Assembly (NCBI GenBank): GCA_051294375.1 | Contig: CM119268.1 | Span: 18,368,005-18,432,004, forward strand | Length of the DNA: 64,000 nt | Source: Paraspadella gotoi | Lineage: Eukaryota > Animalia > Chaetognatha | Direction of reading: 5' to 3' | Part shown: one piece after another, positions 3,701 to 44,387 of the stretch | Layout: each line of letters starts with the position of its first letter | Numbering within the stretch: position 1 is the first letter of the stretch | Position numbers and translations under genes: made by a program | The notes under the pieces: model-generated | Seen by the model: the letters and a program-made list of their open reading frames with translations, nothing else | Databases searched by the model: none | What the model was told of the DNA's origin: nothing

Positions 3701-4900
3701 ATGGATTCCACGCCAACCATTGCGATCACGCCATGGGAATCCCTATGCATAGATGTCATGCATCTCCCACCCAGCGGAGGCATCAGTCACGTCATAGTGA
3801 CATCTGACAACGCCTCAGCCTACACCTGGGTGCTGCCAAACAGGCGAGCAGACGCACCGTACATTATTACCAGATGTACTATATGAGCTGTGTATCACCC
3901 AAGCCTAGGAGGCGCGCGCGGCCGCCATGAGAGTACACAGATCCCTGGCAGCCATAATGTTCAGAGGGGAACTCATCGTCACGGCAGACTGTAAGAAGAT
4001 GCTCGCGCTGAGAAGACAAACGGAAGACTGCTGGCAAGACTTGCCAATCAGCTACAGAGGATGAGTGGCTTTTTTTCCATCATGTGATTTTCCAACACAT
4101 GATAACCTCGTTATACAAAACTCCGTCCGATCCACCACCAATCTACGAGATCTACAAGGGTTTCCACAATGCCATCGAGCGCCCTTTCAGGAAGTACGCG
4201 ACACTGTCAACCTCGCTACCAAATGAGAGATCATTTGACCTCCAAAGTAGATCTCTATAACAACGTCGCCCGCTTTATGGACATGCACGGACAGGATAGG
4301 CACAAAATTTCAACGAACGCATGGGAGATTACGGCCGGATCACCTGCCTCACTATTCAGCTCCATCTTTGGGGATTCCAACTTCACAAAATGGTGGACAA
4401 AATTCACGTGAATCGCCCCACTCGTGGCTTTAGCCGCATCTCTCCTCGCCATCTGCTTCTGCTAACTCACGATGCGGACGGCGATTCGAGAAGCAAAAGG
4501 AGCAATGAATGAGTTGGACGCTTTCATCGCAGGAACCAACTTGGCTCAGTAAGGCGGGATAAACCCGCCGCCTTCGCCAACTGCAGCGGTCAGCTGCATT
4601 CCCCTCCATTCTGCCTCTCTCCACTCTCGGCGGGAAAGCCAGCAAAAAGCCAGTGAAAAACCAGCAAGAAGCCGAGGAAACCACGAGGTCCATCTCACCA
4701 GGACCAAACAAAGACCTCACCAAAACTCTATGACCGCAAGAAAGGCCATGGGACAATTGGAGGGAAGAAGAGGATTTGGGAGGTTAACAAAAGGGCCAAT
4801 AGGAACAAGGCTCGAGACTTTGTTTGAGATTCATTCTAGTTTCTAGGCTCACAAAAGAAAGAGCAATTTTTACTTACCTTTTATCCTTGCTGACCATTGG
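714..4900 (+). pseudogene. Decayed, internally deleted Ty3/gypsy-like env-bearing element related to 5528-16254
   Basis: Frameshifted fragments are homologous to gag (GRRKELGRRIEWILLGWL), RT/RNase H (DIKIFGFIISQDKLKPQ, NTPGLNFL), the OTU-like insert (MGHPELEMLADM), integrase (PWESLCIDVMHLP) and env (EITAGSPASLF). PPT and LTR start are deleted; LTR remnant at about 4590-4900. Confidence 0.9.
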
Positions 4901-5420: not shown

Positions 5421-5527
5421 TTCAAATTGTGACATATATATATAAATACATAACTATATATATATCAATATTTTTTAGTACAAGAAAGTTCATGATCAAC
5501 TATTCAAATTTTGATCGGCCTTACTGA

Positions 5528-5983
5528 CATCGACGATTAACTGAACTGCCGTGATACTGCGAGGAGAGAGGAATCTTCGAAGTAACGAAACAAGAGTTTT
5601 TATTCTCAGAATAAAATGTGATCACAAAATAAAGGATGAAATTCTTTGCTCTTTCTTTTGTGAGCCAGAAGAACCAAGTGACAAGCAAATTCACATCAAG
5701 CTTCTACCTCTACTTTTAGTTTCCGCTCCCTGACCCACAAGAGTCCCTTCCTTGTTCCCCATTGGCCCCCGACCCTGTGATCCCCTTCTACTCTTCTGTG
5801 ATTGGTTCGTGGTCCAAGTGTGGTCATAGAGTTGAGGGTAAGGTCTTTGTTTGGGCTTCTGGTGAGGTTGGCTTTGCCGCCGGCTGCTCCGCTGTGTCTG
5901 CTGCTTCTGCTCCTGCGTATGGGTTGGGGAGGCGAGAGAGAGAGAACCAGCAGCGGCGACCGCTGTGTCAGTGAGCGTTGATG
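5528..5983 (-). repeat. 3' LTR (456 bp)
   Basis: Homologous to 15810-16254. Sense-strand ends are CATCAACG...CGTCGATG. Contains CCAAT motifs and AATAAA. Confidence 0.92.
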
Positions 5984-7928
5984 CGTCCCCCCTCAGTTCG
6001 GCGAAGTAGGGGGGTTTATCCCGTCCTAGTGGAGCCACGGCTACTCCTGCGATCATGGCGTCCAGATTGTCTATTGCAGCCTCGATCTCTCTATTTGCGC
6101 AGCGCACGCATAGCTTGCAGCAGCAGTAACCGCAGCAGCTGAGGCACAAAATGGCTACCATTGCTGCTGTGACCGCGGCGATGATAGGGGCGGTACGCGT
6201 GAGGCTGGTCCACCATTTTGTCAGCTTTGTTTCCCCTAGGATGTCTCTAAAGAGGGAGGCTGGTGATCCGGCGGTGATCTCTCCCATTCTCTGGTTGAAT
6301 TCATGAGCCTCGCCTGTGTATTTGATGTGTAGGTCCATGAATTTTCCGACGTCGTCATATAAGTCTATTTCGGTTGTTATTTGTTCGTCTTTGTTGGGGA
6401 TTGTCGTAGTTAGTGATTTGAAGTTTTTGAACGGGCGTCCCTTTGCATCTCGGTATTCGCCGTTTGTTTTGTAGATTGGCGGCGGGTCGCAGGGCGTTTG
6501 GTACGACGTGCCGATCACGTGATGGTAAATGGCGTGTCGGTACGCAGCTCTACCTCGGTAACTGATGGGCAGGTCTTGCCAGCAATCTTTTGTGTCTCTT
6601 GTAAGGGCGAGAGTTCTTTTACAGTTCGCCGTTACCAACATTTCGCCCCTGAGAATGGCGATTTTCCCTTGATCGACGAAGGTTGTTGCAGCGGGGGATT
6701 TGTGCGCGTGTACGGCGGCTATACGCGCTTCTTTGGCTCTTGAGACGCAGAGCTCATGTCGGAGGGCGTCCGTGAGGCGGTTTATGCGTTGTGCGTTTCT
6801 GCCCGCCAGTTTAGACGCTTGTTCGTGTAGCGCCTCCATGACCTGGCTGTCTCTCTTCAACGTTGTCGGGGCGAGCGCCGATATGAAGAAATGCGGCGAT
6901 GATGTGGCATGCGCCACAAAGTCGCATCCTCTGATGGTTTCACTCTCCCCGGATACCTTCAGCACGAAGGACACATTCGCTTTCCCGCCGCAGATTTCCT
7001 GGCAGCGTTTGAGTTGGGCGGCGCTGTGATTTGCGTAGATGGCCGCGCACTTTGTCCAGCAATTTCCGGCCATCTTTGCCTTCTCCGGATTACTGCACTC
7101 GATTGTTTGCCTGTTCTTGCATCCGCCCAGCGTCGTCATGATGTCCGCTTCGGCCACGGAGCGGATCATGCCATCTTTTGTCGTGAAGACCGTCCCTTCG
7201 AAAGCAATGACCGCTCTACATTTTGCGTCTTTCCACGCTAGGATGCCACCTGGGTAGACGCAGGTGCGGCTTTGCGTGTCGCATCTCCCAGTTTTCGATC
7301 TGATTTCATCCGCTACTCGGATCCGTCGCGTGAAGAGGGTGAGGTTTGACACTAGTTTCGCGTTTTCTGACTCGTACGTGTGGTCGTGGAAATTAAATTT
7401 CTCACCCGTACAGTAGCCATCGGCGTCGTTCGTGCCAATGTGGTGGGTTATTATGTTCGTTCCCAGCTTTCCTTCCATCTCGATGGGGACGAGTATTCCC
7501 GTTTTGTCGCTCACTCTGATGGGCAGGCTATTTAGGGAGACTTTCTTTCCGTCGTGTAGGTCCAGGCATATTTCTCGCGGTAGCGAGAAATGATCGACGA
7601 CGTCGATGTTTGGGTATGGAATGTTCCATCTTCCACACACCCGGCCAGTGGCGACTACGGTTAGGTCACAGCCCTTTGCCTCGTGTTGTTCGTCATCCGG
7701 GACAAAGATGAGCCGTGTTTGTCCGACCTCTTCCTGGATCTTTCCGTTTTGCTCACAAGATTCGATGCTGAGTGATGTTGCTGTGTGATCCTGTGTAGCG
7801 TTGCAGTCGAAAACGGTGACTCGTCTCCCAAGTGTTTGTTCCACTATTTCATCCTTCGTTATTTGGGTCGTTTCATTTGCCATCGCTATGACGTACGCGA
7901 CGAGCATCATATTTTTGATGTTTATCAT
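5691..7928 (-). CDS. env: Env: class III-like viral fusion glycoprotein (herpes gB/chuvirus-type), 745 aa
   Basis: N-terminal hydrophobic signal (MMLVAYVIAMA). Cys pattern VFDC...C...C..R.CG...C...G.C.G..F, and C-terminal G.+A.+.GE....C......DCW.DLP+...TPC. N-glycosylation sequons; TM segment IIAAVTAAMVAILCL followed by a Cys cluster. Third ORF after pol. Confidence 0.85.
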   Translation of the reverse strand: MINIKNMMLVAYVIAMANETTQITKDEIVEQTLGRRVTVFDCNATQDHTATSLSIESCEQNGKIQEEVGQTRLIFVPDDEQHEAKGCDLTVVATGRVCGRWNIPYPNIDVVDHFSLPREICLDLHDGKKVSLNSLPIRVSDKTGILVPIEMEGKLGTNIITHHIGTNDADGYCTGEKFNFHDHTYESENAKLVSNLTLFTRRIRVADEIRSKTGRCDTQSRTCVYPGGILAWKDAKCRAVIAFEGTVFTTKDGMIRSVAEADIMTTLGGCKNRQTIECSNPEKAKMAGNCWTKCAAIYANHSAAQLKRCQEICGGKANVSFVLKVSGESETIRGCDFVAHATSSPHFFISALAPTTLKRDSQVMEALHEQASKLAGRNAQRINRLTDALRHELCVSRAKEARIAAVHAHKSPAATTFVDQGKIAILRGEMLVTANCKRTLALTRDTKDCWQDLPISYRGRAAYRHAIYHHVIGTSYQTPCDPPPIYKTNGEYRDAKGRPFKNFKSLTTTIPNKDEQITTEIDLYDDVGKFMDLHIKYTGEAHEFNQRMGEITAGSPASLFRDILGETKLTKWWTSLTRTAPIIAAVTAAMVAILCLSCCGYCCCKLCVRCANREIEAAIDNLDAMIAGVAVAPLGRDKPPYFAELRGDASTLTDTAVAAAGSLSLASPTHTQEQKQQTQRSSRRQSQPHQKPKQRPYPQLYDHTWTTNQSQKSRRGSQGRGPMGNKEGTLVGQGAETKSRGRSLM
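5986..5994 (-). promoter_or_regulatory. Polypurine tract (PPT)
   Basis: Sense-strand GAGGGGGGA, then 2 nt (CG), then the 3' LTR. Confidence 0.85.
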
Positions 7929-8304
7929 TTCGCCTCTTGTTACGATACGCTAAGGAATGTTTATTTACAGTCGATGAAGTATGCTAAGTATGCTAAGTAT
8001 TTTAAAGTTCAGGGCGAGGGAGGAAAAAAGCTTGTCCCTTTTTTTTTTTTTTTTGAATGTTCGGTGCGAGAGTTTTCCCGTTTTCTCCTATTTTCGATTG
8101 TGGTGAGTGATAGTTTGGGCATCGGCCCGCGTTTCACTCCTTGTTCGTTCGTCGTCCTTATTTTCGTCGTCGTCGTTTCTCCTCGTGCAGGGGGATCTCT
8201 CTCTTTCGCGATTTTGTTCTTTGTTCCTCCTTGCTCCTCCTAGGTCTAATTCCTACATGTCTGCAGTTTTTTTGCTTCGTCCCGTTTTTCTTTCTCTATT
8301 ACCG

Positions 8305-11300
8305 TTAGGATTTAAAAACGGGTGAGTCGCCTCCTGCCGCTTTTAGCCTTCGTCTGTGATAGGTGATGCGTTTTCCTGCTATCTCGACGATAAAATGGTT
8401 TCCTTTTATTTCTAGGATCTCGTGTGGGCCTGTGTATATGGTTTTCATCTTATTTGCGGCTGGCGCGGCTCCTGTGCGGATTAAGTCGCGTCTCACGTAA
8501 ACTCGGTCTCCTACGGCCAGCTTTTTTGGGTCGCGGAAGCGGTTTACTCTTTTCGATGTTCTATTTCTGATTCTGCGTTGCTCAGCGATCTTGTGCTGCG
8601 CTTCTTCCTGTCTGTCGGCTCTTAGTTTTGCATAATCAGATAGATATTCATAAGTTTCCTCGTCCGGAGCCTCGATTAGCCTGGGTTTGTGTCCGAATTG
8701 TAGTTCATGCGGGCTCATGTCCGTTTTCCATCCCGTTATGGGCGTGGCGTTGAGGGTGAGCAGTATGTGAGGCAGTTTCTTTGACCACGCCGTTGCATCG
8801 TCGTCAATTGCCTTTCTCAGCGCTTGTCTGATTCGGCCGATGTCCCTCTCGGCTCTGTTGCTGTTTTTTCTTGAGATTAGGGTCCTTCGTCCGCTTGTGT
8901 CAAGGAGATCGAGGAAACTCCGCATTTCTTCACCGTTCAGAGATGTAGCGCCGTCAAAATTTATTTCGAGGTAGCTCCCATGTAGTAGAAAAATGTTTTT
9001 GTCGAGGGCCGTTATAATGTTTTGCGCATCTGCTCTGCGGATGGGCAACGCCCACGTGTAGGCGGTGGCGTTATCGGATGCGACAACTACGTGGCTGATT
9101 CCGCCGCTGGTTGGAAGATGCATGACATCTATGCATAACGATTCCCACGGCGTTAGGGCGATGGTCGGTGTCGGATCCGTTTCGTTTAGGTGCACCTCGT
9201 CTGTCGTTCTTCTGCAGAGGTCGCACGTGAGTACGATATCCGCGCAGGTGCGTACCATTTCCGGGGCTGCGACGTACTGCGATACGAGGTACGCCGTTCG
9301 GTCGCGACCTGGGTGGCCTAGTTTCTCGTGAATCTTTTTTACTACTTCCCCGAGGTTCTTCTTCGGCACAACGTATCGAGTCGTCCGCGTGTTGATTTTG
9401 TAGCCGATGACGCAAAGTATGTCGTCTCTAGTGATTTCTAATTCCTCCGCGTTTTTCATTAGAAAGATTTGCGTTGGCGTTAGCGCTTTTCTTTGCGTCG
9501 ACATCAGATGCGCCTTTAATCCCATGGCGCCGTGATTTTTGTAAATCGTTTTTATTGATTTGATATCTTCATCTTCGTTTTGCCACTTTTTTACTTCGTC
9601 TATTAAGGGGAGGAGTTGGCTGTCTCGCTGTGTTGGTTGGTTTTCTTCCTCCAACAGGTCGAGTGCGTCCACCTCAATGGACGCTTCGGTGGTTGAGTCT
9701 GGCGGTATCTCGATCGCTTCGTCGGCCTCCCATGCGCTTCGGCGTCTCTCGTCCGCTCGCGGGTGGCGCCTCCTTTCGGGTCCTGGGCTTTGGTTGCGTG
9801 CCGTGGGCGGGGCCGCCGTCCTGATGTCACCCGTTCCGTTTTCCTGCGGCGCTGGCGGGCTTGCCGTCTTCCATTTCGTTGGGGTCGAAGGAGGCGAGAT
9901 TGGTGGCGGCACTGAAGGTGGCGCCGTATGCATGGGGCTTCGTGGTGGCGTTCGAGTTTCGCCACTTGCGCCGGGTCGTTTTATTTGGGATGTCGGCGGC
10001 GCTGCCTCTCTAGTTTCGTCTTGAGGTTTCGTCGCTGGTGGCCCGGGTTTTTTTTGTGTTTCATTCGTTGTTGGGATCCTGTAGATGATTGTTGTGTTCG
10101 CTGGGAGATCTTCTTTCTTTCTCTGCCTTGGTGGTGGCGCGAGGCGTTCAGCGTATGGTATGTTTGAGTTCGGTCCCAACCATTTTTCCGTTATGGCATC
10201 ATTGATGATATCTTTTGTGATGACTTTAATTTCCTTCTTTTCTTTTTCAGTAGCATTCGCGACTCTGAGGTTTGCGGACTCGTCCGCTATCAAGGAAGCT
10301 TGGCCTGTTGTTGTCCTGAAGATCTTCAGTTCTCGTTGATCGTTTGTTCCGTACGTCTTTTCGAATTTGCATCCGGCCGGCGTAGTGACGTCTTCGTCTA
10401 AGATTCTGATGCGGATGTCGATCATGTCAGCGAGCATTTCCAGTTCCGGGTGTCCGAGCATCCAATCTTTTGCCGAGATGCATCTTATGAAAGTGTCAGC
10501 GTCTTTTGTTTTTGGTTCCCCGTAAAGCTTCTTTATGTTTTCTCTTTTCTTTTCGAATTCCTTCCTGACAAAATTGAAAAAGGTTGTTCGAAAAAGTTTT
10601 TCGTCTATTTTCAGGGTGGCGGCGACGACGCTAAGTGTCGGTGCTCCTCCGACTCTCAGTTCTAAGTGGCCCGGCCATGCGCCGCCGCTTATCGGGTCTT
10701 CGCTGTAACCGGGTTCGTACGTGCCTTCGATGTTGAAACCAGCGGGCATGAAGGGCGTGTCTAGCGGGGTTATCTGGCCCTGTTCGGTGAATCTCGTGAG
10801 AAAATCGGCCGGGTTATCTTCGCTCTTCACGAGTATCACTTCGTTCGGGTGACATTCTTGTCTTATTTCGGTTATCCATCGTAAGACGTTGGTTGGGAGT
10901 AGTTGTTGTCGGTCGTGTTGAAGGTCCATCACCCTTTTGAAGTATTGTGAGTCGGTGATTAATTTTACTCGTCTCCCGCAGATATAGCCTTTGAACTTTC
11001 TGATCATCATGTTAAAGGCTAATGTTTCGAGTATGTTTATGTGTTTGATCTTATATTCGTCGGGAAATGATTTTGAGTGGAAACTTAACGGATACTCTAC
11101 GCCATTTGCTGTCGCCGTTATAAGTCCTCCCATTGCGCTGGTGCTGGCGTCAGCGTATATGCGGTATTCCCCGTTCTTTATTTTTGCGTCGTTTAAAAAA
11201 TTTAGTCCCGGAGTGTTTTTGATTTCGCTGACTAGTGTTTCTAGGGCCTCTCGATGCTTTCCTTCGAACTTAAAGCTGCTTTTGTCGACCAGCGTGAGTG

Positions 11301-13854
11301 CGTGTAACGGTTGTGCGAGATAAGAAAACCTGTGAGTAAAGCATCTGTAGTAGTTTAGTGAGGCCAGGAGGGCGCGGAGATCCTTTTGCGTCTTGATCTG
11401 CTTCAGTTTGATCTCGGCTTGTTCCAGCTTTTCCCTCTGTGGTTTCAGCTTATCCTGCGAGATGCTAAAGCCGAGGATCTTGATGTCGTCCTTCCTTAGT
11501 AGGACGCTTTTTGTCCACTTTAAGACGACGTTTTCTCGTCTACATATTTCCAGGAATTCTCGCAGGCGCTCTGCCATCTCCTCGGGTGATCTCGCTGTTA
11601 GGATGAGGTCGTCGACGTAAATGAGGAAGCTCTTTACGTCTCTTCCGAGGTCCGCGAAAATCTCGTCCAGGATGGCCTGCAGCACGTTTACACTGTTTAC
11701 TCCGCCCATGGGGAGCTTATTCATGTGCCAGTTGTGTCCTGCGCCTGCGAAAGCGGTTACCGGTTTGCATTTGTCCGCCAGATTTACCTGGTGAAAACAC
11801 GCCAGGATGTCGACCGAACATTGTAGTTCGTGGGGTTTGTATTCCTCTAAGATTGAGGCGATTGTCTGTGGCTCTGTCGCAAAGGTTGAGATGTTATCAT
11901 TTACAGCTGATAAGTCGCAGATTAGCCTCCATTGTTTCGCGAATGTTTCATCGTCCATTTGGTCTTGGTCGTTGGCGATGTGATTGGGTTTCTTTATCAA
12001 AAAGGCATTCGAATAAGCTTCTCCAGATGTTCTGGAGACGACTCCAGCTTTCTCGTAGACTTCGAGATATCTTTTGAGGGCTGCCTTCTTCACTGGGCCT
12101 TGATTCACGAATCTTGGTTTTGGTAAGCCTTCTGTCGTGTAGCCAAGGTCGACTCTATAATTCAGGAATCCTTCCTTGCAGTCGTTTATTGATTCCCCAA
12201 AAACGTCTCTGAATTCCCAGACTGTTTCCCAAACTATGGGAGCTTTGTCAATGAGGGATGGGTCAATTTCCTTAAACGGGCGTAGAAATTCGTCCTTCCC
12301 TCGGTCGTCGTGCTTCTGACGTCTCCTTCTTCTCGCTTCTTCTACCGCTTCCAGTTCCGCTTCTGAAGGTGTGTGTTTAACAATCTTCGTTGGCGGTATG
12401 TTTTCTTTGCGTACTCGTCGTAATTTTGGTCTTTCCCCTGTTAAATCTGCCTGGATTGGTCTTGCAATACAGTCCGGATCCAGATTTAAATTCGTCTTGG
12501 CTTCTTCCGTGACGATTAGTTTTGCTTCTCCCCATTCGCCGGGTTCGCCTGGCAGTTCCACCCCTTGTTTTAGGTGCTCGCCTGATACTGTGCACGCCGT
12601 CTCGCCGTCGCGGGATTGTAGGATCCACTTTGCCTCCGCGAGCGACTTCCAGTAAACCCTGGCTGCTCTCACCACGAGGTTCCCCGTCTCGTTCCTTTCT
12701 GCGTAGAGCGGTACCTGTGTTTTCTCGTCAACACACTTTCTTGCAAGCCATCTTGCTGCTTTTAGAGCTGACTGTTTGTCCTTAAAGAGATGCGTAACCG
12801 GTTTTCCCGCCATGTGTGCTACTTGTAGACCTTTCTTTTCGGCTGGGGTGACGATCCACATCTCATTGGCTGGCCCTGGGTCGGTTGTGGCCGTTCCGAT
12901 TATCACGTCCCTGTCCTCTTCGTCTGGGGATATGAAGAAGGTCGTGTCCAGTATCCAATTTTGGAACATGACTCTGAGATTGATGCGGTCTCTGATGACG
13001 ACGTTTCCGTTTCCTGTCGATACCCGGAGTGGTGGGCCGGAGTAGATTTTGCTCGTCATTGACCATTCGTCTACAAACTTCTTCGGGATAGTGTTTATCG
13101 ATGCCCCTGTGTCGTAAAGGCAGCTCGCTGGGGCTCCTCCTACCACTGCTGGGATGTAGCTGTTGCTGTTGAAGTTGATTTTTCTTTTTGTGTCATCCCT
13201 AGGTGGCGGGTCATTTCGTGGGTGGGGCGGATGGGTTTGCAGCGGACTCGTTGGTAAAGGGGGGGGTTCCATTTCACCTTTTGTATCTTCCGGGGTTATT
13301 ATTTCTCGGATGAAGACCTCCGGTTCATGACAACTTATTTCCGCTTTCCTTATCGTTGCCTGGTGTAGGGATTCGCCTTTTGCATCACCGACGATGGAAT
13401 AGGTTGGGTTGTAGATTGCCTTCCTGCATCTTGTGCTTAGGGTGGCCACTCGTGGCCTTAGGCGATTCAGTCGTGACTTTCCTCTCGACTCTGGTGTCAG
13501 CGGCCTTTCTGCCGGTAGTGTGTCGGCGTCTCTACTTTCGGTTTCATCGTCACTTGTTGATAAACTTTCACCTTCGTCTTGCGAGGGTAATTTGTTTCCT
13601 TTCTTTTTGCATAACTTCTTGCATATTTTCAACCTTTTTACAAAAGCTTTCTTTTCATTTAGTGCCCAGTTTTTCCATGGCTGTAGGCTTTCCTTTACTA
13701 TTTCTAGTGCTAATCTTTTCTTTTCACTTTCCTCAAGTGGATTGAAAAGTCTGTGGAGGCGCACTGCGGCTGTTCTTCCAGTAAATTTTAGTGCTGCTTT
13801 CGCGCATTCTTTTAAATGCGTTTGATTTCGTCCCGATGGCATCTCTTTGGCCAT
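8305..13854 (-). CDS. pol: Pol polyprotein (PR-RT-RNase H-[OTU-like, Pro-rich]-integrase), 1849 aa
   Basis: PR: LYDTGAS. RT: WRLICDL, LPMG, IYVDD, ILGFSIS, NYYRCF. RNase H: YADAS, ILETLA, ITDSQ, NPADFLTR. IN: HEKLGH...CDLC, CIDV/FDGA/AER, GPY/F-like YTGPHEI. Domain order and motifs are gypsy-type. Confidence 0.95.
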   Translation of the reverse strand: MAKEMPSGRNQTHLKECAKAALKFTGRTAAVRLHRLFNPLEESEKKRLALEIVKESLQPWKNWALNEKKAFVKRLKICKKLCKKKGNKLPSQDEGESLSTSDDETESRDADTLPAERPLTPESRGKSRLNRLRPRVATLSTRCRKAIYNPTYSIVGDAKGESLHQATIRKAEISCHEPEVFIREIITPEDTKGEMEPPPLPTSPLQTHPPHPRNDPPPRDDTKRKINFNSNSYIPAVVGGAPASCLYDTGASINTIPKKFVDEWSMTSKIYSGPPLRVSTGNGNVVIRDRINLRVMFQNWILDTTFFISPDEEDRDVIIGTATTDPGPANEMWIVTPAEKKGLQVAHMAGKPVTHLFKDKQSALKAARWLARKCVDEKTQVPLYAERNETGNLVVRAARVYWKSLAEAKWILQSRDGETACTVSGEHLKQGVELPGEPGEWGEAKLIVTEEAKTNLNLDPDCIARPIQADLTGERPKLRRVRKENIPPTKIVKHTPSEAELEAVEEARRRRRQKHDDRGKDEFLRPFKEIDPSLIDKAPIVWETVWEFRDVFGESINDCKEGFLNYRVDLGYTTEGLPKPRFVNQGPVKKAALKRYLEVYEKAGVVSRTSGEAYSNAFLIKKPNHIANDQDQMDDETFAKQWRLICDLSAVNDNISTFATEPQTIASILEEYKPHELQCSVDILACFHQVNLADKCKPVTAFAGAGHNWHMNKLPMGGVNSVNVLQAILDEIFADLGRDVKSFLIYVDDLILTARSPEEMAERLREFLEICRRENVVLKWTKSVLLRKDDIKILGFSISQDKLKPQREKLEQAEIKLKQIKTQKDLRALLASLNYYRCFTHRFSYLAQPLHALTLVDKSSFKFEGKHREALETLVSEIKNTPGLNFLNDAKIKNGEYRIYADASTSAMGGLITATANGVEYPLSFHSKSFPDEYKIKHINILETLAFNMMIRKFKGYICGRRVKLITDSQYFKRVMDLQHDRQQLLPTNVLRWITEIRQECHPNEVILVKSEDNPADFLTRFTEQGQITPLDTPFMPAGFNIEGTYEPGYSEDPISGGAWPGHLELRVGGAPTLSVVAATLKIDEKLFRTTFFNFVRKEFEKKRENIKKLYGEPKTKDADTFIRCISAKDWMLGHPELEMLADMIDIRIRILDEDVTTPAGCKFEKTYGTNDQRELKIFRTTTGQASLIADESANLRVANATEKEKKEIKVITKDIINDAITEKWLGPNSNIPYAERLAPPPRQRKKEDLPANTTIIYRIPTTNETQKKPGPPATKPQDETREAAPPTSQIKRPGASGETRTPPRSPMHTAPPSVPPPISPPSTPTKWKTASPPAPQENGTGDIRTAAPPTARNQSPGPERRRHPRADERRRSAWEADEAIEIPPDSTTEASIEVDALDLLEEENQPTQRDSQLLPLIDEVKKWQNEDEDIKSIKTIYKNHGAMGLKAHLMSTQRKALTPTQIFLMKNAEELEITRDDILCVIGYKINTRTTRYVVPKKNLGEVVKKIHEKLGHPGRDRTAYLVSQYVAAPEMVRTCADIVLTCDLCRRTTDEVHLNETDPTPTIALTPWESLCIDVMHLPTSGGISHVVVASDNATAYTWALPIRRADAQNIITALDKNIFLLHGSYLEINFDGATSLNGEEMRSFLDLLDTSGRRTLISRKNSNRAERDIGRIRQALRKAIDDDATAWSKKLPHILLTLNATPITGWKTDMSPHELQFGHKPRLIEAPDEETYEYLSDYAKLRADRQEEAQHKIAEQRRIRNRTSKRVNRFRDPKKLAVGDRVYVRRDLIRTGAAPAANKMKTIYTGPHEILEIKGNHFIVEIAGKRITYHRRRLKAAGGDSPVFKS

Positions 13855-15574
13855 TTGTTTTATTTCATCTGCGGCGTGCTGCGCTAACTGCCGCTTTCAT
13901 CCTTTCCTGGGATGTACTCTGCCTATTTCTGTTTCTTCGATATATTTTCTCTTACTTTTCATGAAATTTAATTTCTTATCAGAGTAAACATTTTCAGCGT
14001 CTCAACAACAAGGAAATCTCTACGTCTGGAATCGAATTTGTTCCTCGGTCTTCCCCTGTAGGATCTGTCTCCCCAACGGCCTTCGTTCCTTTCTTCGCGG
14101 CGTTCCCGGCCGTCATTTCTGGCGCGGTAGTCGCGGTTTGGCTTTTCTCGCCATTTTTCGATCATCCTTCTTCTCGTCCTTCTTTTCCGTTCATCAGGGT
14201 GGCCATGTCCTTGGTGAGCTTTTCCAGTAATTCTCGTGAATTATTCGCTTCCTGTAGCATGGCCCCCTGGTAGAGGGCGCTGGCGCTTTCTGCTGGGTTC
14301 TTATCATTCAATCCTTTCTGCAGGAGGGAGTCGGTGAGGACTTGACGGTCATTATCCTTGACGGAGTTGATGAAACGTCTCCCCTTTGCTTGGTTTCCGT
14401 GGGTCACCAGCCATCCGCGGAGGATCCATTCGATTCGTTTCCCTAGGTCCCTTTTCCTTCCTTTTTCGATGTAGGAGCGGAAATCCATCGCTTCCTGTGC
14501 GATCCCTGGAGCGTAGGGTGTCAAGGCCTTCGTCAGCAGACGTGCGGTGTGCCTTGGGACTGCGCCTCGTTCTCATTCCTCCGGTGCGACGACGTCGAAC
14601 TGCGATATACCTCGTTACCAAGGCGAGGCCTGCTCCGCGTGTACTCCGGTTCGACTTACTTCGACGCGTCCGCCACCTCCGAGGCTGAGATTGATGTTGA
14701 CTCGAAGATGTCGCATAGTCCTTGTAGAGACTACCGCCTATCGGGTCAAGAAGCAGCTGACCTCGTAGTCTCTGGTGATAAGGCTTGGAGTTTTCATCCA
14801 CGTTGTGACGTCGACCCTGCATCTCGCAGGGACTGATAGATCCCTCGTAGGAAATCCTGGGGTTTTCTCGGCTCGTCGTTTCTCTATCTTATCGTGCTGA
14901 TTCTGGGCGTGGCTTCCGCGCGGCTGGGGCATATTCTCGACGGGGAGGGTCGCGGCTATCGTCGCGTATGGTTTCGCGGCTGTAGTCACGCCTCCGTCTA
15001 AATGTTCCGATGTCGCGGTCCGTCTCTCCACGGTCTCCGTCGTCCCGTCGGTCGTCGTCTCCGTCGTTCTCGCAACAAGTTCATTATTTCTGTTATGTTG
15101 CTGTTGTCTTGTTCACCGTGTCTTTTATGATTCCACGGTGTTATGCAACTGTCCGAACTTTTCAGATAATTTATGTTTTCCACCTTGTTGTCGTTACTAG
15201 CGGAGCATTTCTCTGAACCCATTGAGTGATCTCCGCCTTTTCCAGCTGCGACGTTTCGTAGGTTCGTTGAAGTCCAGTTGGTGAGTCGTCCTCCGTGAGG
15301 AGATTTCAACGCGGCCTCCGTGTCCTTGTCGTTTCCCTGCTGTTTTTGTCGTTTACCGTCATTTTGCTGAGTCCGGATGTGACGTCGTTGATGTCGTCGG
15401 CTGCGCGATTGCGCTTTGACTTCCGGAGCCATGATCGACATCCCAGTCGTGGATCGAGGTATGTCCTACCATCATGGATCTTTGCGGACGCGGTAACGGC
15501 TGGTCGGGCGTCGGGGCCGATGGATGCATGTTTTTCTCCGCCATTTCTTTCGTTTCGTTTTTCTTTCCTTTTTG
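13855..15574 (-). pseudogene. gag: gag region broken into overlapping short ORFs
   Basis: Pieces 15359-15601, 14998-15441, 14738-15031, 14352-14822, 14162-14524 and 13968-14165 chain by small frameshifts. They match the decayed copy (RDY.VSCF.DPI.G.L; LGKRIEWIL.GWL). No CCHC knuckle seen. Frameshifts may be assembly errors. Confidence 0.7.
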
Positions 15575-15791
15575 CGTGAGCTTATCGACGGCCTTCGTCA
15601 AGTTTGCCCAAGACGCAGATTTCTTATGACGTCAACTTGGCTGTTCTTCAGAGTTCTTGTTTGTTCGTTGCGCACTTTGTTCGCTTTCGAAAATAACCTT
15701 TTTCCTTGTGGTAGCGGGTCGTGGTTGGCGGCGTGGGGCGATTTCGATTTTCGACGAGTTTAAAATTGTCGATTTTCGAAGTTTCTTTCGC

Positions 15792-15809
15792 ATCTCGTGT
15801 GTGACACCA
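15792..15809 (-). promoter_or_regulatory. Primer-binding site
   Basis: TGGTGTCACACACGAGAT directly after the 5' LTR. The first 8 nt match the tRNA-Leu-type PBS TGGTGTCA; tRNA identity uncertain. Confidence 0.7.
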
Positions 15810-16254
15810 CATCGACGATAACTGAACTGCCGTGATACTAAGAGGAGAAGGAATCTTCGAATAACGAAACAAGAGTTTTATTTCTCAGAATAAAAATGTG
15901 ATCACAAAATAAAGGATGAAATTCTTTTGCTCTTTCTTTGTGAGCCAGAAGAACCAAGTGAAAACAAATTCACATCAAGCTCTATCTCTACTTTTAGTTC
16001 ACGCTCCTAACCCCACTAAGTCCCTGCCTTGTTCCCCATTGGCCCCCGCCCGTATGATCCCTTCTACTCTACTGTGATTGGTTCGTGGTCCAAGTGTGGT
16101 CATAGAGTTTAGGGTAGGTCTTTGTTTGGGCTTTTGGTGAGGTCGCTTGCCCGGCTGCCTCTGCTGCTTCTGCTGCTTCTGCTCCTGCGTATGGTTGGGG
16201 AGGCGAGAAAGAGGAAACAGCAGCCGGCGACCGCGTGGTCAGTGAGCGTTGATG
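15810..16254 (-). repeat. 5' LTR (445 bp)
   Basis: Direct repeat of 5528-5983 with scattered substitutions and 1-nt indels. Confidence 0.92.
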
Positions 16255-16745: not shown

Positions 16746-17815
16746 CTTTCCTGTGGTAACCTTTCATCTATCATAACAGGTTGGCACATGAAATTAAAAT
16801 GATCTATTTCAAAAGATTCTGGACTTAAATCGTCCTTAATGGCGTTGTTCCAATATAAATATTTGCATTAGACAAAATTTGCTCTTGTGTCAGTTGAATA
16901 TTCACTAATTTTCCTTCAAGGGCCGTTCTCCAAAAATAACCCTGTGAAGAGACAGTAATTATTGTTATATGTTAGTGATAGAACCGTTCAATTTAAGCAG
17001 TCCCTGAGCTTTGGATCAGGCTGTAACACCGTGTTACAGGCGGGTTAAGCGCCCCGTCCTTCTTAACTGCCAGGCGACCACCGGGCTAGAACCCTGGACC
17101 TTTGGGTTGGGGGGCGAATGACTTGCCTCCGGCACCAATGGCCACTGATGAACGGTTGGTGGATTTTAGTGCACCATACATCCCCCCCTTGCGTAGGGAA
17201 AAGTCTGTTGCGTCTCTTCAGTGAATTGTTGGTGGAAAGTTCGTCACCAAGTTGAGGCATGTTGCCTGATGTGTTGTGGGCGGAAAGTGCATCGCCAGGT
17301 GGAGGCATGTCACCTGAAAATGTTGTTGTTGCTGTTGTGTTCGGAAATCGGGCTCACCAATGAAGAAACAGTAATTATTGTTGTATGTTAGTGATAGAAC
17401 CGTTCAATAAAAGCAGTCCCTGAGCTTCGGATCAGGCTGTAACACCGTGTTACAGGCGGGTTAAGCGCCCCATCCCTCTTAACTGCCAGGCGACCACCAG
17501 GCTAGAACCCCGGACCTTTGGGTTGGGAGGCGAATGACTTGCCTCCGGCACCAATGACCGCTGATGAACGGTTGGTGGATTTTAGTCCACCATACCTGTT
17601 TATTTATTGGGCAGGTCAATAGTTTCACTTCCTCATTTTTTGTGAAGTAAACAAACATCTCGTTATCCCTAAAAATTCAGTCGAAAGCGTTAAATTATGC
17701 ATAATTTCCTGTATTATTTTCTGAACATTTTTGGTATTGATTTGAAGGTTAATAAACTGTTCTTATGCTGTTGGTATTTAAAGTTATAGCTGAACCTTCA
17801 ATTATTGAGGCTAGA
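16746..17815 (-). CDS. GAF-coding exon of the PDE-like gene, interrupted by the 16945-17594 element and frameshifted
   Basis: Removing the element and one TSD restores EVKLLTCPINKQGYFWRTALEGKLVNI, followed by FMCQPV. Donor AG|GTAAC at 16746. Confidence 0.6.
16997..17070 (-). ncRNA. Twister ribozyme-like motif (family A 3' LTR)
   Basis: Same fold. L4 TCCAAAGC mismatches the CGG pseudoknot partner at one position, and P2 has a substitution. Confidence 0.6.
17413..17486 (-). ncRNA. Twister ribozyme-like motif, P5-type permutation (family A 5' LTR)
   Basis: GCAGTT-AAG-AGG-GA-TGG-GGCGCT-TAA-CCC-GC-[CTGTAACAC/GTGTTACAG]-C-CTGA-TCCGAAGC-TCAG-G-GACTGC, i.e. P5, P2, catalytic GA, pseudoknot, P1, UAA cleavage site, P3, P4 and the L4 U-NNN-AAGC loop. 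P2 is one nt short. Confidence 0.75.
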
Positions 17816-18223
17816 CATTCTTTAAAAGTTAACTATTAATAATGATTAAAGTTATATTCAACTTTAACATTTAATTTTTAAATTAATGATTAACTTCTGT
17901 CAATTCTTATATTAATTGTATCTTAAAATTGGTATAATTTATTGTTTTAACGTCATTACAAGTACAGTTAAAATGCTGTTTAATATTAATATTTTTATAA
18001 TGGAGTATTACAGTGCTGAACAAAACATTATAAATGACAAATATTTTGACCTAGGGGTGGGACCCTATATCCATAGAAAATTTTAACGTCTTGCCCTGTC
18101 TGAATGATTTGAGATACAATAATAAAATGAGTGGTAAAAGTGTTTTTGGCTTTTTACTTTCATATACAATGAAAAAAATTTAAGCAACTACAAGGCGTCG
18201 TGGATGTTTTCAAAACATTGAGT

Positions 18224-18476
18224 TATGGCAACAGCCGGGTTGCCTGTGATGCATCTCAGTGGGGCATCTCACTGTTGGCTTTGGGGGCTTCCGACCCTCA
18301 GTGACGCCTCCAGTCACTGGCGCGGTTACCCTAGGACGGTCTCGCTTTGCCAACGCAGAGGGAAGTCGTTAGGACTGTGGATGGAACACTACGCCTGGGA
18401 TGGTGTGTTCCCCCTCTGAGCCAATGGATTTGGCTGACGGATGGTGGACGTGAGGCGGTGTGAATATACCGCCACA
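18224..18476 (-). mobile_element. Family B solo LTR (253 bp) carrying a twister ribozyme
   Basis: Perfect TSD GAGT; sense ends TGTGG...GCCATA; 5' hairpin GGCGGT/ACCGCC; empty site in the duplicate copy near 20192. Confidence 0.9.
18274..18354 (-). ncRNA. Twister ribozyme, P5 type (best canonical copy)
   Basis: GTTGGC-AAA-GCGA-GA-CCG-TCCTAGGG-TAA-CCGC-GC-CAGTGAC..GTCACTG-AGGG-TCGGAAGC-CCCC-AAA-GCCAAC. Pseudoknot CCG/CGG; predicted cleavage between 18328 and 18327. Confidence 0.85.
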
Positions 18477-19133
18477 GAGTCGTTTTTTTGTGCGCGCATT
18501 GTATTGCACACGATAAAAGCCATACTTGTTAATATTTTTCACTAGTCGTTTCTGAACATGACAGTGTTATGTCTTATCTTCAATTCACTTCATTTTAAGA
18601 TTTTAATCACTATCCTAGTTATACCTATTTAATATTTATTTTTAGTTCAGGTATATAAGTAAAACAAAATTTTACGAAGATTATAATGAATATGCTTAAA
18701 TTGTCGAATACTTTGTATTTCTTACCTTTTTGACGATTTTATTATGTATTAAGAAATCTTACATGATAAATTTAATTATCTGACAATATCGTTAATAATT
18801 TTTTTGATAAAAGTTAGTTTTATTAAAAATTAAACCATAATAGTAACTTATACAAATCTTACCTGCTTACTTTAATTTTTTTTAACCAAAACACCATGTA
18901 CACCTTACTATACTACATTATTATACTCAAATAAGTGCTTCCAAAAATATTTTTAACTTTTATATATTAGAATGAGATTCAACAGTAAGTATTCAAACAT
19001 TTTTCTTCCAAACCGCGCATCCGTCTGTCCGTCTGGCCACCCTTAGCAAAAAACTCCAATTCCTCGTGATTGGATGGTTGAACCCACACTCCCACAGATG
19101 ATACACATCACCCAACCAAAGAACATGAGAGAT

Positions 19134-19342
19134 TGCAAAGAAAGTAATTATTATTATGTGCTAGTGACAGAACCGTTCAATATAAGCAGCCCCTGAGCTT
19201 CGGATCAGGCTGTAACACCATCCCTCTTAACTGCTAAGCGACCACCGGGCCAGAACCCCAGACCTTTGGGTTGGGAGGCGAAAGACTTGCTTCCAGCACC
19301 AATGACCGCTGATGAACGGTTGGTGGATTTTAGTCCACCATA
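19134..19342 (-). mobile_element. Family A solo LTR with internal deletion removing the ribozyme cleavage site (duplicate at 20842-21048)
   Basis: TSD AGAT; lacks the GGCGCTTAACCCGCC segment. Confidence 0.85.
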
Positions 19343-21562
19343 AGATTAACTTTACACTAGACATGTATGACGACAATGCTCAACAGAATCGAGCTTCAAA
19401 CAAGTTTGAACAAACAACGTCGGATCTGCCTATGATAATTAAGCGGTATAAAGTATAAAGTATAAAGTATAAAGCTAATCCAATGTTATATCACGATAAT
19501 TCTTTCTTTCAATTTGTGATCTAAACAGATCATAACAAATCAAGACATAAAAAATCATGACAAATCTATAAATCAATTGATCAATCAATCATTACCAGAT
19601 CAACGCATCAATGCATGAACCATTTTAATTACCATTTAACGGTAGACATTTTGTGAAATCCTTTCTTTTGTTGTGTTTGGATTAAGAAAAAGTTTGAAAT
19701 CGATTCTACAACAATTTATTTTTGAGACAGTAAACATTAAGGCAGGCTAAAATTGCACACTTTTTATAACTTTTAGTTCTCTCAAGATTTTTTTCCCTAA
19801 GTTGTAGTTCATTCAAATAGCGATGTCGCCGGCNNNNNNNNNNNNNNNNNNNNNNNNNTCTCGATGTATTAGCTCTAATACTCAAAGATTACGCATGTTA
19901 TGCTGAATGACCTTTCCTCTTTAACGTCATTACAAGTACAGTTAAAATGCTGTTTAATATTAATATTTTTATAATGGAGTATACAGTGCTGAACAAAACA
20001 TTATAAATGACAAATATTTTGACCTAGGGGTGGGACCCTATATCCATAGAAAATTTTAACGTCTTGCCCTGTCTGAATGATTTGAGATACAATAATAAAT
20101 GAGTGGTAAAAGTGTTTTTGGCTTTTTACTTTCATATACAATGAAAAAAATTTAAGCAACTACAAGGCGTCGTGGATGTTTTCAAAACATTGATCGTTTT
20201 TTTGTGCGCGCATTGTTATTGCACACGATAAAAGCATACTTGTTAATATTTTTCACTAGTCTGTTTCTGAACATGACAGTGTTATGTCTTATCTTCAATT
20301 CACTTCATTTTAAGATTTTAATCACTATCCAAGTTATACCTATTTAATATTTATTTTTAGTTCAGGTATATAAGTAAAACAAAATTTTACGAAGATTATA
20401 ATGAATATGCTTAAATTGTCGAATACTTTGTATTTCTTACCTTTTTGACGATTTTATTATGTATTAAGAAATCTTACATGATAATTAATTATCTGACAAA
20501 TCGTTAATAATTTTTTTGATAAAAGTTAGTTTTATTAAAAATAAACCATAATAGTAACTTATACAAATCTTACCTGCTTACTTTAATTTTTTTTAACCAA
20601 AACACCATGTACACCTTACTATACCACATTATTATACTCAAATAAGTGCTTCCAAAAATATTTTTAACTTTTATATATTAGAATGAGATTCAACAGTAAG
20701 TATTCAAACATTTTCTTCCAAACCGCGCATCCGTCTGTCCGTCTGGCCACCCTTAGCAAAAATCCAATTCCTCGTGATTGGATGGTTGAACCCACACTCC
20801 CACAGATGATACACATCACCCAACCAAAGAACATGAGAGATTGCAAAGAAAGTAATTATTATTATGTGCTAGTGACAGAACCGTTCAATATAAGCAGCCC
20901 TGAGCTTCGGATCAGGCTGTAACACCATCCCTCTTAACTGCTAAGCGACCACCGGGCCAGAACCCAGACCTTTGGGTTGGGAGGCGAAAGACTTGCTTCC
21001 AGCACCAATGACCGCTGATGAACGGTTGGTGGATTTTAGTCCACCATAAGATTAACTTTACACTAGACATGTATGACGACAATGCTCAACAGAATCGAGC
21101 TTCAAACAAGTTTGAACAAACAACGTCGGATCTGCCTATGATAATTAAGCGGTATAAAGTATAAAGTATAAAGTATAAAGCTAATCCAATGTTATATCAC
21201 GATAATTCTTTCTTTCAATTGTGATCTAAACAGATCATAACAAATCAAGACATAAAAAATCATGACAAATCTATAAATCAATTGATCAATCAATCATTAC
21301 CAGATCAACGCATCAATGCATGAACCATTTTTAATTACCATTTAACGGTAGACATTTTGTGAAATCCTTTCTTTTGTTGTGTTTGGATTAAGAAAAAGTT
21401 TGAAATCGATTCTACAACAATTTATTTTTGAGACAGTAAACATTAAGGCAGGCTAAAATTGCACACTTTTTATAACTTTTAGTTCTCTCAAGATTTTTTT
21501 CCTAAGTTGTAGTTCATTCAAATAGCGATGTCGCCGGCGATTCACGCAAGAGTCGCAGGTGT

Positions 21563-22625
21563 GGTTCTAGTTGGTTGGCGACTTAGCCATGACGCCCTCG
21601 CCATTTGGCGATTTAGCTGTAAACTACATCTAGCGTTCTAGTTATGGCGATTTCGCTAACTAAACTCAGATTAGGGTTAGGGTTAGGGTTGAGTTGGTTA
21701 GGGTTAGGGTTGAGTAGGTAGTAGTTAGGGTTAGGGTTGAGTAGTTTAGGGTTAGGGTTGAGTAATTTAGGTTAGGTTGAGTTAAGTTAAGTTTATTTTA
21801 GGCTTATTATTAATGTCAATTTTAGGGATAGGGTAGGGAGGGTGTTGTTGATGACCAAGAGGCCCGCGTTAGGGTTAGGGTTGAGGCACGGAGATGTACG
21901 GGAGGCCTGGGCCCGGTTAGGGTTAGGGTTGGGAGAGAGGCCCGTGGGTTATATATCGAAGGCAATAAGGGTTAGGGTTGAGGTACGGAGATGTACGGGA
22001 GGCCTGGGCCCGGTTTAGGGTTAGGGTGGGAGAGAGGCCTGTGGGTTATATATCGAAGGCAATTAGGGTTAGGGTTGAGGTACGGAGATGTACGGGAGGC
22101 CGGGCCTGGTTTAGGGTTAGGGGAGAGGCATGGAGTTGAACGGGAGGCTTGGTTTAGGGTTAGGGTTGCGGGAGGGACCCATGGTTGATGCATCGAAGGC
22201 GGTTAGGGTTAGGGTTGAGGCACGGAGATGTACGGGAGGCTGGGCCTGGGTGAGGGTTAGGGGAGAGGCATGGAGTTGAACGGAGGCTTAGTTTAGGGTT
22301 AGGGTTGGGGGAGGGGGCCCGTGGTTGATGCATCGAAGGCGGTTAGGGTTAGGGTTGAGGCACGGAGATGTACAGGAGGCTGAGCCTGGGTTAGGGTTAG
22401 GGGAGAGGCACAGAGTTGAACGGAAGGCTTGGTTTAGGGTTAGGGTTGGGGGAGGGGCCCGTGGTTGATGCATCAAGGCGGTTAGGGTGTGCTCATCCCG
22501 TGTTAGCTGCGCTTTTCATTATATTCGCTACTTTTATCACTGGCGAGGTCGCCAGTGGGGGACTGGCGAACATCGCCAAAGCCCTGGCGATATCGCCATG
22601 GCGAAGTCGCCAACCAACTAGAACC
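21563..22625. mobile_element. MITE-like element with about 30-bp TIRs enclosing a TTAGGG-rich minisatellite
   Basis: ggttctagttggttggcgactt.gccatg / catggcgaagtcgccaaccaactagaacc; internal units of about 85-140 bp punctuated by GGGTTAGGGTTAGGG. Confidence 0.7.
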
Positions 22626-26613: not shown

Positions 26614-27580
26614 TAGCCGGAACTCGTTTTTAGACATAACAGAAGAAGCAGTGACGGAGAAAAAGACAAAGAGAGAGAGTGACATATAATTAAAAGAGAG
26701 AGAGAGAGCGAAATATAATTAAAACATTTTTGTTTTGTAAATAAAACGAACAAATACGAATATTGATATTAGCGGTAACCGACCAAATTTAAATTTTAAT
26801 GGAAACAGCATTAAACGAATCCATTATTGGTATTAGTTATTGTGTGAAAAAATTTTTTTACAAAAATGTTTCAAACCATGAATGTGGCGAACGGTCACGT
26901 TCGCCAACGTCTCTACTTTCACTAGTTCGTTAGAATGATTAAAATGTTTTCCAGAACAAAAGCTTTATTTGTTCATTTATAAAAACAGACCTTAATAAAA
27001 TAATCAAAGCATATAGATATTCATAAAATACCTATATGCCGTAACAAGCAATGGCAATAACAAAATACTATCAATCAATAGTATCAATCAATAAACGTTA
27101 ACAAGTAATATAAACATTAATACTGTGATAATAAACATTGACAATGTGGAACCAAATCCATGATGAGAAAGAAAGGAAATAATTGAAGTTGTAAAATGGA
27201 AACCATAAAGTTACTACTAGTGTGATCTAGTAAGATATAAGTATTTATAATGTTCTTTTGTTTTAACATGATTATTCTAGAATGCTAGAATAATTAAACA
27301 CCTATGGAATATCCATTGGTAATTACTGAGGTGGTAAAAACCACTAAGTGACAGGTCATGGATAATTAGTCCTGGGATCGAATCTGGGAGATGACTATTT
27401 TATTATGAATCAATTAAACTGTTTATCAGTTGATACTTATGTAAATTCAAAGATAAGTTTAATTACATTGTTAGAGATAGTTGTTATTAACATTTTTTGT
27501 TAACTTTTTGAGCTCATCAGAATCAATTAAAAAAATTTAAAATATCAAAAAAAATTTTTTTAACATTATATAGGCAATAT

Positions 27581-28553
27581 TATGGTGGACTAAATTCCAC
27601 CAACCGTATCAACGGCCATTAGTGCCGGAGGCAAGTCATTCGCTTCCTAAGCCAAAGGTCCGGGGTAGTCGCCTAGCAGTTAAGAGGGACGGGCGCTTAA
27701 CCCGCCTGTAACACGGTGTTACCGCCTGATCAAAGCTAGGAACTGCTTATATTGAACGTTCTGTCACTAAACATAACACATTGGTTGTACCAATTTATAA
27801 AATTCAGCTCCTTGTATTTTGATGCTAGTGCGGAGTACAATATAGTATTTCCCGAACTAATACTTAAGGGAGTGGTCTTTTCATAGCAATATGAAACATT
27901 CTTTGAAAACATTATACCACTTCATTAATAGGGAAGCCAGGTACTCTGGGAGTGAATAAACGAGACTGTGAGAAAGTCTTGATTGAAAGCTTGCAGGGAC
28001 CTGCTATGTCATTATCTTGTAAGAGTGATGGAGGCCTTAAACCACCAAGCCTGTCCAAAGTCAGGGGCAAGATAAGCTTTATTTATTAATAATGGATAAT
28101 TTTTATATTGGTTGTACCAATTAACCCAAACAATTATTACTGTTCTTCATTGGTGAGCACACGACTTCCGAACACAAACAGCAACAACAAAAACACTTTC
28201 AGGTTGACATGCCTCATCCTGGCGATGCACTTTCGCGCCAACAACACAGGCGAACATGCCTCACTTGGTGACGAACTTTCACAACAACAATTCACTGAAG
28301 AGACGCAACAGACTTTCCCTACGGGACATAAAATCCACCAACCATTCATCAGTGGCCAATGGTGCCGGAGGCAAGTCATTCGCCTCCCAACCCAAAGGTC
28401 CAGGGTTCTAGCCTGGTGGTTGCCTAGCAGTTAAGAGGACGGGTCGCTTAACCCGCCTGTAACACAGTGTTACAGCCTGATCCGAAAGCTACGAACTGCT
28501 TATATTGAACGGTTCTGTCACTAACACATATCAAATATTACTGTCCTCTTTCA
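27581..28553 (+). mobile_element. Family A two-LTR element with an insert of about 350 bp in LTR1 (error-rich copy)
   Basis: LTR1 from 27581 resumes near 28130 and ends CTTCA at 28149; PBS TGGTGAGCAC; internal region; LTR2 about 28328-28553. A noisy duplicate starts near 29189. Confidence 0.75.
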
Positions 28554-44130: not shown

Positions 44131-44387
44131 TGTGGTGAATTCTAAATTCGCTTCCCGTGTAGCTTGGTGAAAATCAGCTCGACCCATTGGCTTGGACAGC
44201 TAAGAACTCGTTCACCAACCGTTAGTTCCTGTTTCAATCCCCTCACGGTCTCGCTGGTTAAAGTGTAATGGTGTCGGCATAAACACGCCAGTGACATGCT
44301 GTTGTCACTGCAGGTGCAAAGCCTTGAACGTCAGCTGTCAGAAGATGCCTCAAACCCGGGCATCACAACTGTCCCCCTGTTACCATA
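44131..44387 (+). mobile_element. Family C solo LTR (257 bp) with twister motif at 44253-44335
   Basis: TSD AAAT; TGTGG...CCATA ends; GCTGG-TTAAA-GTGT-AA-TGG-TGTCGGCA-TAA-ACAC-GC-CAGTGACA/TGTCACTG-CAGG-TGCAAAGC-CTTG...TCAGC. The catalytic G position is A in this copy. Confidence 0.88.

Follow-up and report, generated by a model that had tools for sequence, protein, structure and literature searches.

The locus at 16945–17594 raises the question of whether a small LTR retroelement without enzyme genes, residing in an animal-like genome, could be propagated in the manner of a retrozyme, with a twister ribozyme in each LTR, as a preliminary description of this DNA proposed. The element was analyzed within its 64-kb window (the whole stretch of DNA under study) and in X1, one public run consisting of contigs only, the data type of which is uncertain ('RNA?').

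Structure of the Element

The family A element comprises 650 bp, with its sense on the minus strand (Table 1). Its LTRs differ at 13 of 234 positions; ten of these differences are transitions, five of them at CpG. The 5′ LTR begins with TATGG and a hairpin, ends with TTCA, and contains neither AATAAA/ATTAAA nor TATA. No ORF of at least 120 aa overlaps the element. The primer is presumably tRNA-Trp. The LTR pair, the CCTG flanks, an empty site in X1 and the lack of such an ORF bear out the anatomy given in the preliminary description (650 bp, two 234-bp LTRs, a 4-bp TSD, PBS and PPT, no enzyme gene). It is shorter than 1 kb and represents a genuine TRIM with multiple copies.

Family A LTRs open with TA, not TG, and a TG remains between the PPT and the LTR; the LTRs of families B and C (see below) have TG at the start and TA at the end. 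A TA start is also present in some wasp Helenus LTRs (PMC10886601, supplement).

Table 1. Features of the family A element and of related insertions in the 64-kb window (ribozymes, tRNA-like segments and monomer are predictions).
Feature	Position	Strand	Remarks
TSD, left copy	16941–16944	.	CCTG; flank comparison, X1 empty site
TSD, right copy	17595–17598	.	CCTG; flank comparison, X1 empty site
5′ LTR, family A	17361–17594	−	234 bp
3′ LTR, family A	16945–17178	−	234 bp; 94.5% identity to 5′ LTR
PBS, tRNA-Trp-like	17342–17359	−	11 of 12 bases as at the start of Helenus-2_SyJa/SyUm internal regions
Polypurine tract	17181–17190	−	2 nt ahead of 3′ LTR
Non-coding interior	17179–17360	−	182 bp; contains a 48-bp tandem duplication
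tRNA-like segment, 5′ LTR	17490–17561	−	72 nt; acceptor-like stem, T-arm, weak box A; by eye
tRNA-like segment, 3′ LTR	17074–17145	−	same segment as in 5′ LTR
Predicted P5-permuted twister, 5′ LTR	17413–17486	−	U|AA cut 17463/17462
Predicted twister, 3′ LTR	16997–17070	−	U|AA cut 17047/17046
Predicted monomer between cut sites	17047–17462	−	416 nt; putative RNA
Second two-LTR family A element	40235–40775	+	TSD GTAG; internal deletion; 3′ LTR without ribozyme core
Family A solo LTR	41797–42029	+	TSD ATAT; twister U at 41927
Family A solo LTR	43674–43906	+	TSD GTAC; twister U at 43798; 7-nt linker deletion
Family B solo LTR	18224–18476	−	253 bp; TSD ACTC; own P5-type twister 18354–18274, predicted cut after U 18328
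Decayed two-LTR element, B-related	42930–43555 (ends approximate)	+	70% to B; PBS TGGTGAGCC at 43142; each LTR with twister remnants
Family C solo LTR	44131–44387	+	TSD AAAT; twister remnant, general-base G changed to A
Family C solo LTR	54250–54506	+	flanks GGGT/CGGT; P5-type twister, U at 54408

Copies and Empty Sites

One X1 contig joins 16940 to 17595 and skips 654 positions, i.e., the element (650) plus one TSD (4), which corresponds to an empty site; since the flank may itself be a repeat, this site could represent a paralog instead of an allele. Contigs with loose ends before 16945 (35) and behind 17594 (29) leave the element into unlike flanks. Back-pointing joints in X1 are compatible with deletions, or with contigs placed on the other LTR, and in such contigs circles are indistinguishable from LTR repeats.

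In the window, family A LTRs are represented by 14 BLAST matches, both LTRs of the element counted, and by one further decayed LTR near 27950–28150. Two pairs of regions are duplicates (17946–19833/19920–21538 and 27479–27858/29088–29476). The earlier figure of about 15 LTRs or fragments, some of them assembly duplicates, holds. The near-identical duplicated blocks 17946–21538, 27479–29476 and 36001–40344 adjoin assembly gaps and are probably uncollapsed haplotypes. One pair of blocks differs by a family B insertion: the duplicate haplotype has no counterpart, at 20193/20194, of the LTR at 18224–18476. Four-bp TSDs flank four A insertions, one B insertion and one C insertion, and no tandem arrays are present in the window, which speaks against the retrozyme reading considered below.

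The ribozyme core is missing at two family A LTR loci (40585, and 19139 with its duplicate 20847). Independent deletions within the family A ribozyme are seen at 40585–40775, 19139–19342, 20847–21048 and 43674–43906; by eye, each has 2–4-nt microhomology at its ends, and these deletions may mark template jumps across structure. A TTAGGG-rich, telomere-like 97/140-bp satellite, which fits an animal genome, lies at 21671–22488.

Families B and C have no BLAST similarity to A and are present in the window as solo LTRs only. X1 contains an empty site for the family B insertion (18220 joined to 18478), a PPT-like loose end for B and, at a contig depth of 107, a B variant whose deletion spans the ribozyme. 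The PBS of the B-related element 42930–43555 has the same start as that of the family A element. At 26883, a TGTGG hairpin start resembling those of B and C LTRs is found with no twister behind it.

The Predicted Twister Fold

The blocks of each LTR follow the order P5 strand, linker, P2′, GA, T1′, short P1 hairpin, U|AA, P2, GC, P3, P4 with L4, and P5 strand. For this reading, the Schistosoma table (PMC8501958) and the P1 consensus of Rfam served as templates, and UAA, GA, GC and L4 agree with them. The predicted twister of the 5′ LTR could form a 7-bp P5, a 3-bp P2 with a bulge, T1 with one G.U, a 1-bp P1 with a 4-nt loop, T2 GC, an 8-bp P3, and a 5-bp P4 followed by L4, the general-base G being 17474. 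The 3′ LTR counterpart is mismatched in P2 and, with A.C, in T1. The conserved twister core (U|AA, general-base G, A.A pair, T2 GC/GC, L4) is present, with the G altered in one C copy.

A descriptor written on family A, the A matches of which are therefore not independent, found this P5-permuted layout with the U|AA sites named in the preliminary description, and also recovered families B and C, previously unnoticed. Its relaxed form gave seven matches in the window against four in 300 locally shuffled windows. T1 triplets differ by family: CCG/CGG in A (in copy 43798 and, at 17472, in the X1 majority), CGG/CCG in B, and CCA/TGG in C as inferred from its two copies. T1 pairing is complete (3/3) in the 5′ LTR (one G.U), A copy 43798 and B, and amounts to 2/3 in the 3′ LTR, A copies 41927 and 25444, and both C copies. 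The first P1 pair is G.U in A, U.G in B and U-A in C; P3, P4 and P5 are distinct among the three families, yet paired. The twisters did not align across families with MAFFT, and covariation here means a family-by-family comparison of stems. The claim of a twister fold is strengthened because two further LTR families carry covarying P5-type twisters.

A covariance model of the permutation-invariant core, independent of the descriptor, was obtained from 371 phage and metagenome loci, which yielded 88 fully paired P1-type cores; 53 of the 64 P3-bearing cores were used to build it. The training set contains no CCG or CGG T1 types, and the E-values are rough. At E ≤ 1 this phage-core model gave seven matches: both C copies (2.3e-8 at 54250–54506, 0.0014 at 44131–44387), two A copies (0.046, and 0.047 for the 3′ LTR), B (0.59), the B-related remnant at 43488 (0.35) and one probable chance match (0.34). 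The 5′-LTR copy and A copies 43798 and 25444, all found by the descriptor, are not listed by the model at this threshold. At 35390–35500 (minus strand), a P4/L4-like hairpin preceded by UAA was missed by both descriptor and model; it may represent a fourth twister that has decayed, or a chance resemblance.

The search with Rfam twister models that was proposed together with the preliminary description came out negative: there was no match at gathering in the window and none at E ≤ 10 in 16900–17650. Only chance-level, non-ribozyme matches appeared at E ≤ 10 in 16900–17650 and 17480–17575, and no Rfam hammerhead match was obtained in the window. The Rfam twister models do recover positive controls. 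The twister-P5 model (RF02684), as seen on a phage control, covers 58 positions, with a long P1 and without a P3 or P5 stem; thus, the layout of these LTRs is not described by that model.

The P2 strand is 3 nt long in A (4 nt in the templates) and 4 nt in B and C, and P1 comprises 1 bp in A and 2 bp in B and C. According to PMC11662667, P1 is dispensable and imperfections of P2 are tolerated in P1-type twisters, whereas pseudoknot mismatches are not; PMC5113685 agrees. P1 linkers of 6–8 nt were not convincingly seen among 59 viral (phage) loci recovered with P5-type patterns; 20 of these loci were scanned with Rfam, which identified one true twister-P5, with a long P1. Among the loci retrieved with a B/C-style pattern (5 from viruses, 11 from metagenomes), there is no LTR P5 twister (8 of 10 scanned match Rfam twister-P1), and the exact family A motif had no match in metagenome contigs. 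Several phage and metagenome loci carry more than one self-cleaving ribozyme within a short distance (three twisters in L061, two in L164, a twister and a pistol in L071).

Keeping P2 and P4 costs 4.7–12.1 kcal/mol in all five A copies, 3.7 in B, and 6.7 and 2.0 in C; the same cost in the 88 phage twisters has a median of 0 and a maximum of 6.1, these twisters being pre-selected for perfect pairing and pseudoknots being unscored in the fold energies. The family A ribozyme probably cuts slowly due to a competing hairpin. Judging by CpG-type changes in T1, the copy at 16945–17594 is a decayed one, and it may be impaired by the T1 A.C and P2 mismatches of its 3′ LTR. The ribozyme may be dispensable, since ribozyme-deleted A and B copies exist. 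The weak P2 and P1, the competing fold of family A and the tRNA-like segment considered below are new relative to the preliminary description, as are the differing PBS and LTR ends of the gypsy element in the window.

The tRNA-Like Segment

The tRNA-like segment adjoins the twister on its upstream side and carries a box-B-like motif in its T-arm (17509–17499 in the 5′ LTR). The box A/B score against a consensus is reached by 75 of 300 shuffles for the 5′ LTR and by 13 of 300 for the 3′ LTR; five of the seven twister LTRs fall within 10–22 per 300, the other two at 75 and 200, and the gypsy LTR used as a control at 266 of 300. No tRNA was obtained from Rfam in 17480–17575, and ARAGORN reported 0 tRNAs. 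The motif CATTGG may be a CCAAT box or, equally, the start of box A. The segment is a candidate, though a weak one, for a Pol III promoter, and it points weakly to the Helenus TRIMs.

Proposed Retrozyme Mechanism and Alternative Readings

The preliminary interpretation holds in part. The reading favored here, with a probability of roughly 0.55, is that the element is a mobile, protein-free TRIM with a predicted P5-permuted twister in each LTR, which acts, by analogy with the plant elements, as a retrozyme via a circle and a gypsy-type helper. If the promoter lies upstream of LTR base 109, the transcript would contain an entire ribozyme within each LTR; such a location upstream of the ribozyme is described for the promoter of plant retrozymes (PMC9695139). 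One cut per LTR would then release a 416-nt monomer, which could be ligated into a circle, copied and integrated by the gypsy-type helper. Since the double cut would leave a unit length without terminal redundancy, unusable by ordinary strand transfer, a circular template would solve this problem, and this route was proposed for plant retrozymes (PMC4918200). The spacing of 416 nt between the cuts, put forward in the preliminary description, is correct; it follows from the LTR duplication (234 of LTR plus 182 of interior) and is therefore no independent evidence for cleavage. The predicted 416-nt circle of this one decayed copy has an MFE of −115 kcal/mol, with 55% of bases paired and z = −1.0 against 100 shuffles; in this prediction the monomer is not unusually stable, unlike plant retrozyme monomers with their highly stable, branched fold.

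A gypsy-type element lies at 5527–16254 on the minus strand, with LTRs at 15809–16254 and 5527–5983 and the ends CATC...GATG. Its gag region is spread over short frames, whereas pol is a frame of 1863 aa that encodes protease, RT, RNase H and integrase. A further frame, of 752 aa, matches Pfam Monjiviricetes_fusion (E = 2e-11) and is envelope-like, of the chuvirus type. This element was rejected as the likely helper: its PBS and LTR ends are different, and it has no twister match. A decayed, rearranged relative with 65–77% identity to it is located at 1863–4419 on the plus strand.

There is some, if minor, likelihood that the twister mainly makes the 3′ end of the RNA as a substitute for a terminator and no circle arises, the 5′ copy often staying uncut because of the competing hairpin. 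The product would be a linear RNA that starts at about LTR base 34 and stops at base 132 in the 3′ LTR, with a terminal repeat of about 100 nt and normal strand transfer. Such a role agrees with the lack of a poly(A) signal in all seven twister LTRs (the gypsy LTR has one), a feature that suits the favored reading as well, with competing folds that would leave cleavage partial, and with a monomer stability that is not viroid-like. The three T4 runs of the element (17410, 17320, 17200) sit where the X1 majority differs, and T4 runs are absent from two other interiors, though the chance expectation is only 0.78 runs. However, both ribozymes are identical at insertion, and the 5′ one, being transcribed first, has more time for cutting; in plants, the 5′ ribozyme cuts completely (PMC9695139).

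Rather improbable is a derivation of the twister from an autonomous gypsy-type LTR lineage, or from a captured SINE/RTE fragment, in which the TRIMs are carriers and the ribozyme has its role in the full-length element or has lapsed. The solo-only occurrence of B and C, the ribozyme-deleted copies and a resemblance of the family A P3 to that of Schistosoma RTE twisters (PMC8501958) would suit such an origin. Both two-LTR types (A and B-related), however, have short non-coding interiors, the one gypsy element with located LTRs differs from them in PBS and lacks a twister match, and the compensatory differences among families point to continued selection. Very improbable is a chance match or a twister-like structure that no longer cuts, in an ordinary TRIM: the missing Rfam match, the short P2 and P1, the competing fold and the weak model scores for A and B are outweighed by covarying stems that occupy a shared LTR position in three families, by the rarity of descriptor matches in shuffled windows and the model score of C, and by the activity of about 94% of the natural twisters tested, P1-type only (PMC11662667).

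Implications

If the retrozyme reading is true, LTR retrozymes need self-cleavage and not one given ribozyme, and twisters have a second genomic role besides the 5′ ends of LINEs. The LTRs would also contain a natural P5 plus P3 twister with a minimal P1, missed by Rfam. For a direct test, short templates of natural sequence, every one with its predicted cut site, are available from the three families.

Comparison with Known Systems

The element has in common with plant LTR retrozymes (PMC4918200, PMC9695139) a non-coding two-LTR structure with a ribozyme per LTR, a PBS, a PPT and a 4-bp TSD, as well as many solo LTRs, a presumed gypsy helper and an R repeat removed by predicted double cleavage. 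It differs from them by a predicted twister in place of the type III hammerhead, a tRNA-Trp-like instead of a tRNA-Met PBS, LTRs of 234 bp instead of 300–400 bp, an animal-like host, the tRNA-like LTR segment and a monomer that is not unusually stable. As both the hammerhead and the tRNA-Met PBS that define the plant elements are lacking, it is regarded as a variant with a probably similar mode of action.

Helenus TRIMs (PMC10886601) likewise are animal TRIMs with a 4-bp TSD and a gypsy-type PBS. Their LTRs contain tRNA-like sequence, of which the putative tRNA-like segment of family A, read by eye, would be a much more degenerate form, without an Rfam or ARAGORN match. Read by eye, Helenus-2_SyJa and Helenus-2_SyUm share the layout of hairpin, box A/B, ribozyme and short tail, with a near-identical PBS. 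In the LTRs of these two gall wasp elements (PMC10886601, Data S1), a type III hammerhead follows the tRNA-like boxes, with a GUC cut triplet, a 7-bp stem I and two loops complementary over about 12 nt, again by eye; it sits at the LTR position occupied here by the predicted twister. No ribozyme was seen by eye in the other animal Helenus LTRs examined from the supplement. The accessible text of PMC10886601 (Kojima 2024) describes no ribozyme, and the word occurs there once, in a reference title. It is possible, at somewhat less than even odds, that these elements belong to an overlooked animal lineage of Pol III-driven LTR retrozymes, tRNA-headed, with a tRNA-Trp-type primer and an interchangeable ribozyme slot (twister in at least three families here, type III hammerhead in gall wasps), which replicate via small circular RNAs. 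Such a lineage, if real, could contribute viroid-like circles with twisters to transcriptomes.

Perere-3 RTE (PMC8501958) also presents a eukaryotic twister on a retroelement, and the sequences of its P3, L4 and linker resemble those seen here. That LINE is autonomous and has one ribozyme, of the P1 type, at its 5′ end, whereas here the P5 permutation is predicted in both LTRs of a non-coding element. Rfam twister-P5 (RF02684) has the same order of P2′, GA, T1′, closed P1, UAA, P2, GC and P4/L4; its P1 is long, compared with 1–2 bp here, where P3 and P5 measure 5–8 bp.

Animal non-LTR retrozymes (PMC7761336, bioRxiv 10.64898/2026.07.22.740005) are small animal retroelements too, with the self-cleaving ribozymes and circular RNAs that are predicted here, but they form tandem repeats with type I hammerheads, are tied to Penelope, and have no LTR, PBS or PPT. 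A 2020 review describes metazoan retrozymes as lacking LTR, PBS and PPT, and a July 2026 preprint defines LTR retrozymes as elements with type III hammerheads, primarily of plants. Neither a twister in an LTR element nor an animal LTR retrozyme was found in the full texts searched, among which subscription papers are few, and an earlier listing is possible. The accessible portions of PMC13565253, PMC10085705, PMC11721086, PMC6765202, PMC6154101 and bioRxiv 2022.07.19.500677 contain nothing on twisters in LTRs. The division current in texts up to July 2026 opposes LTR retrozymes with type III hammerheads (primarily in plants) to non-LTR ones with type I (mostly in animals), and a twister-bearing LTR element in an animal would depart from it on both counts. 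The LTR design has hitherto been reported chiefly from plants, and always with a ribozyme other than the twister.
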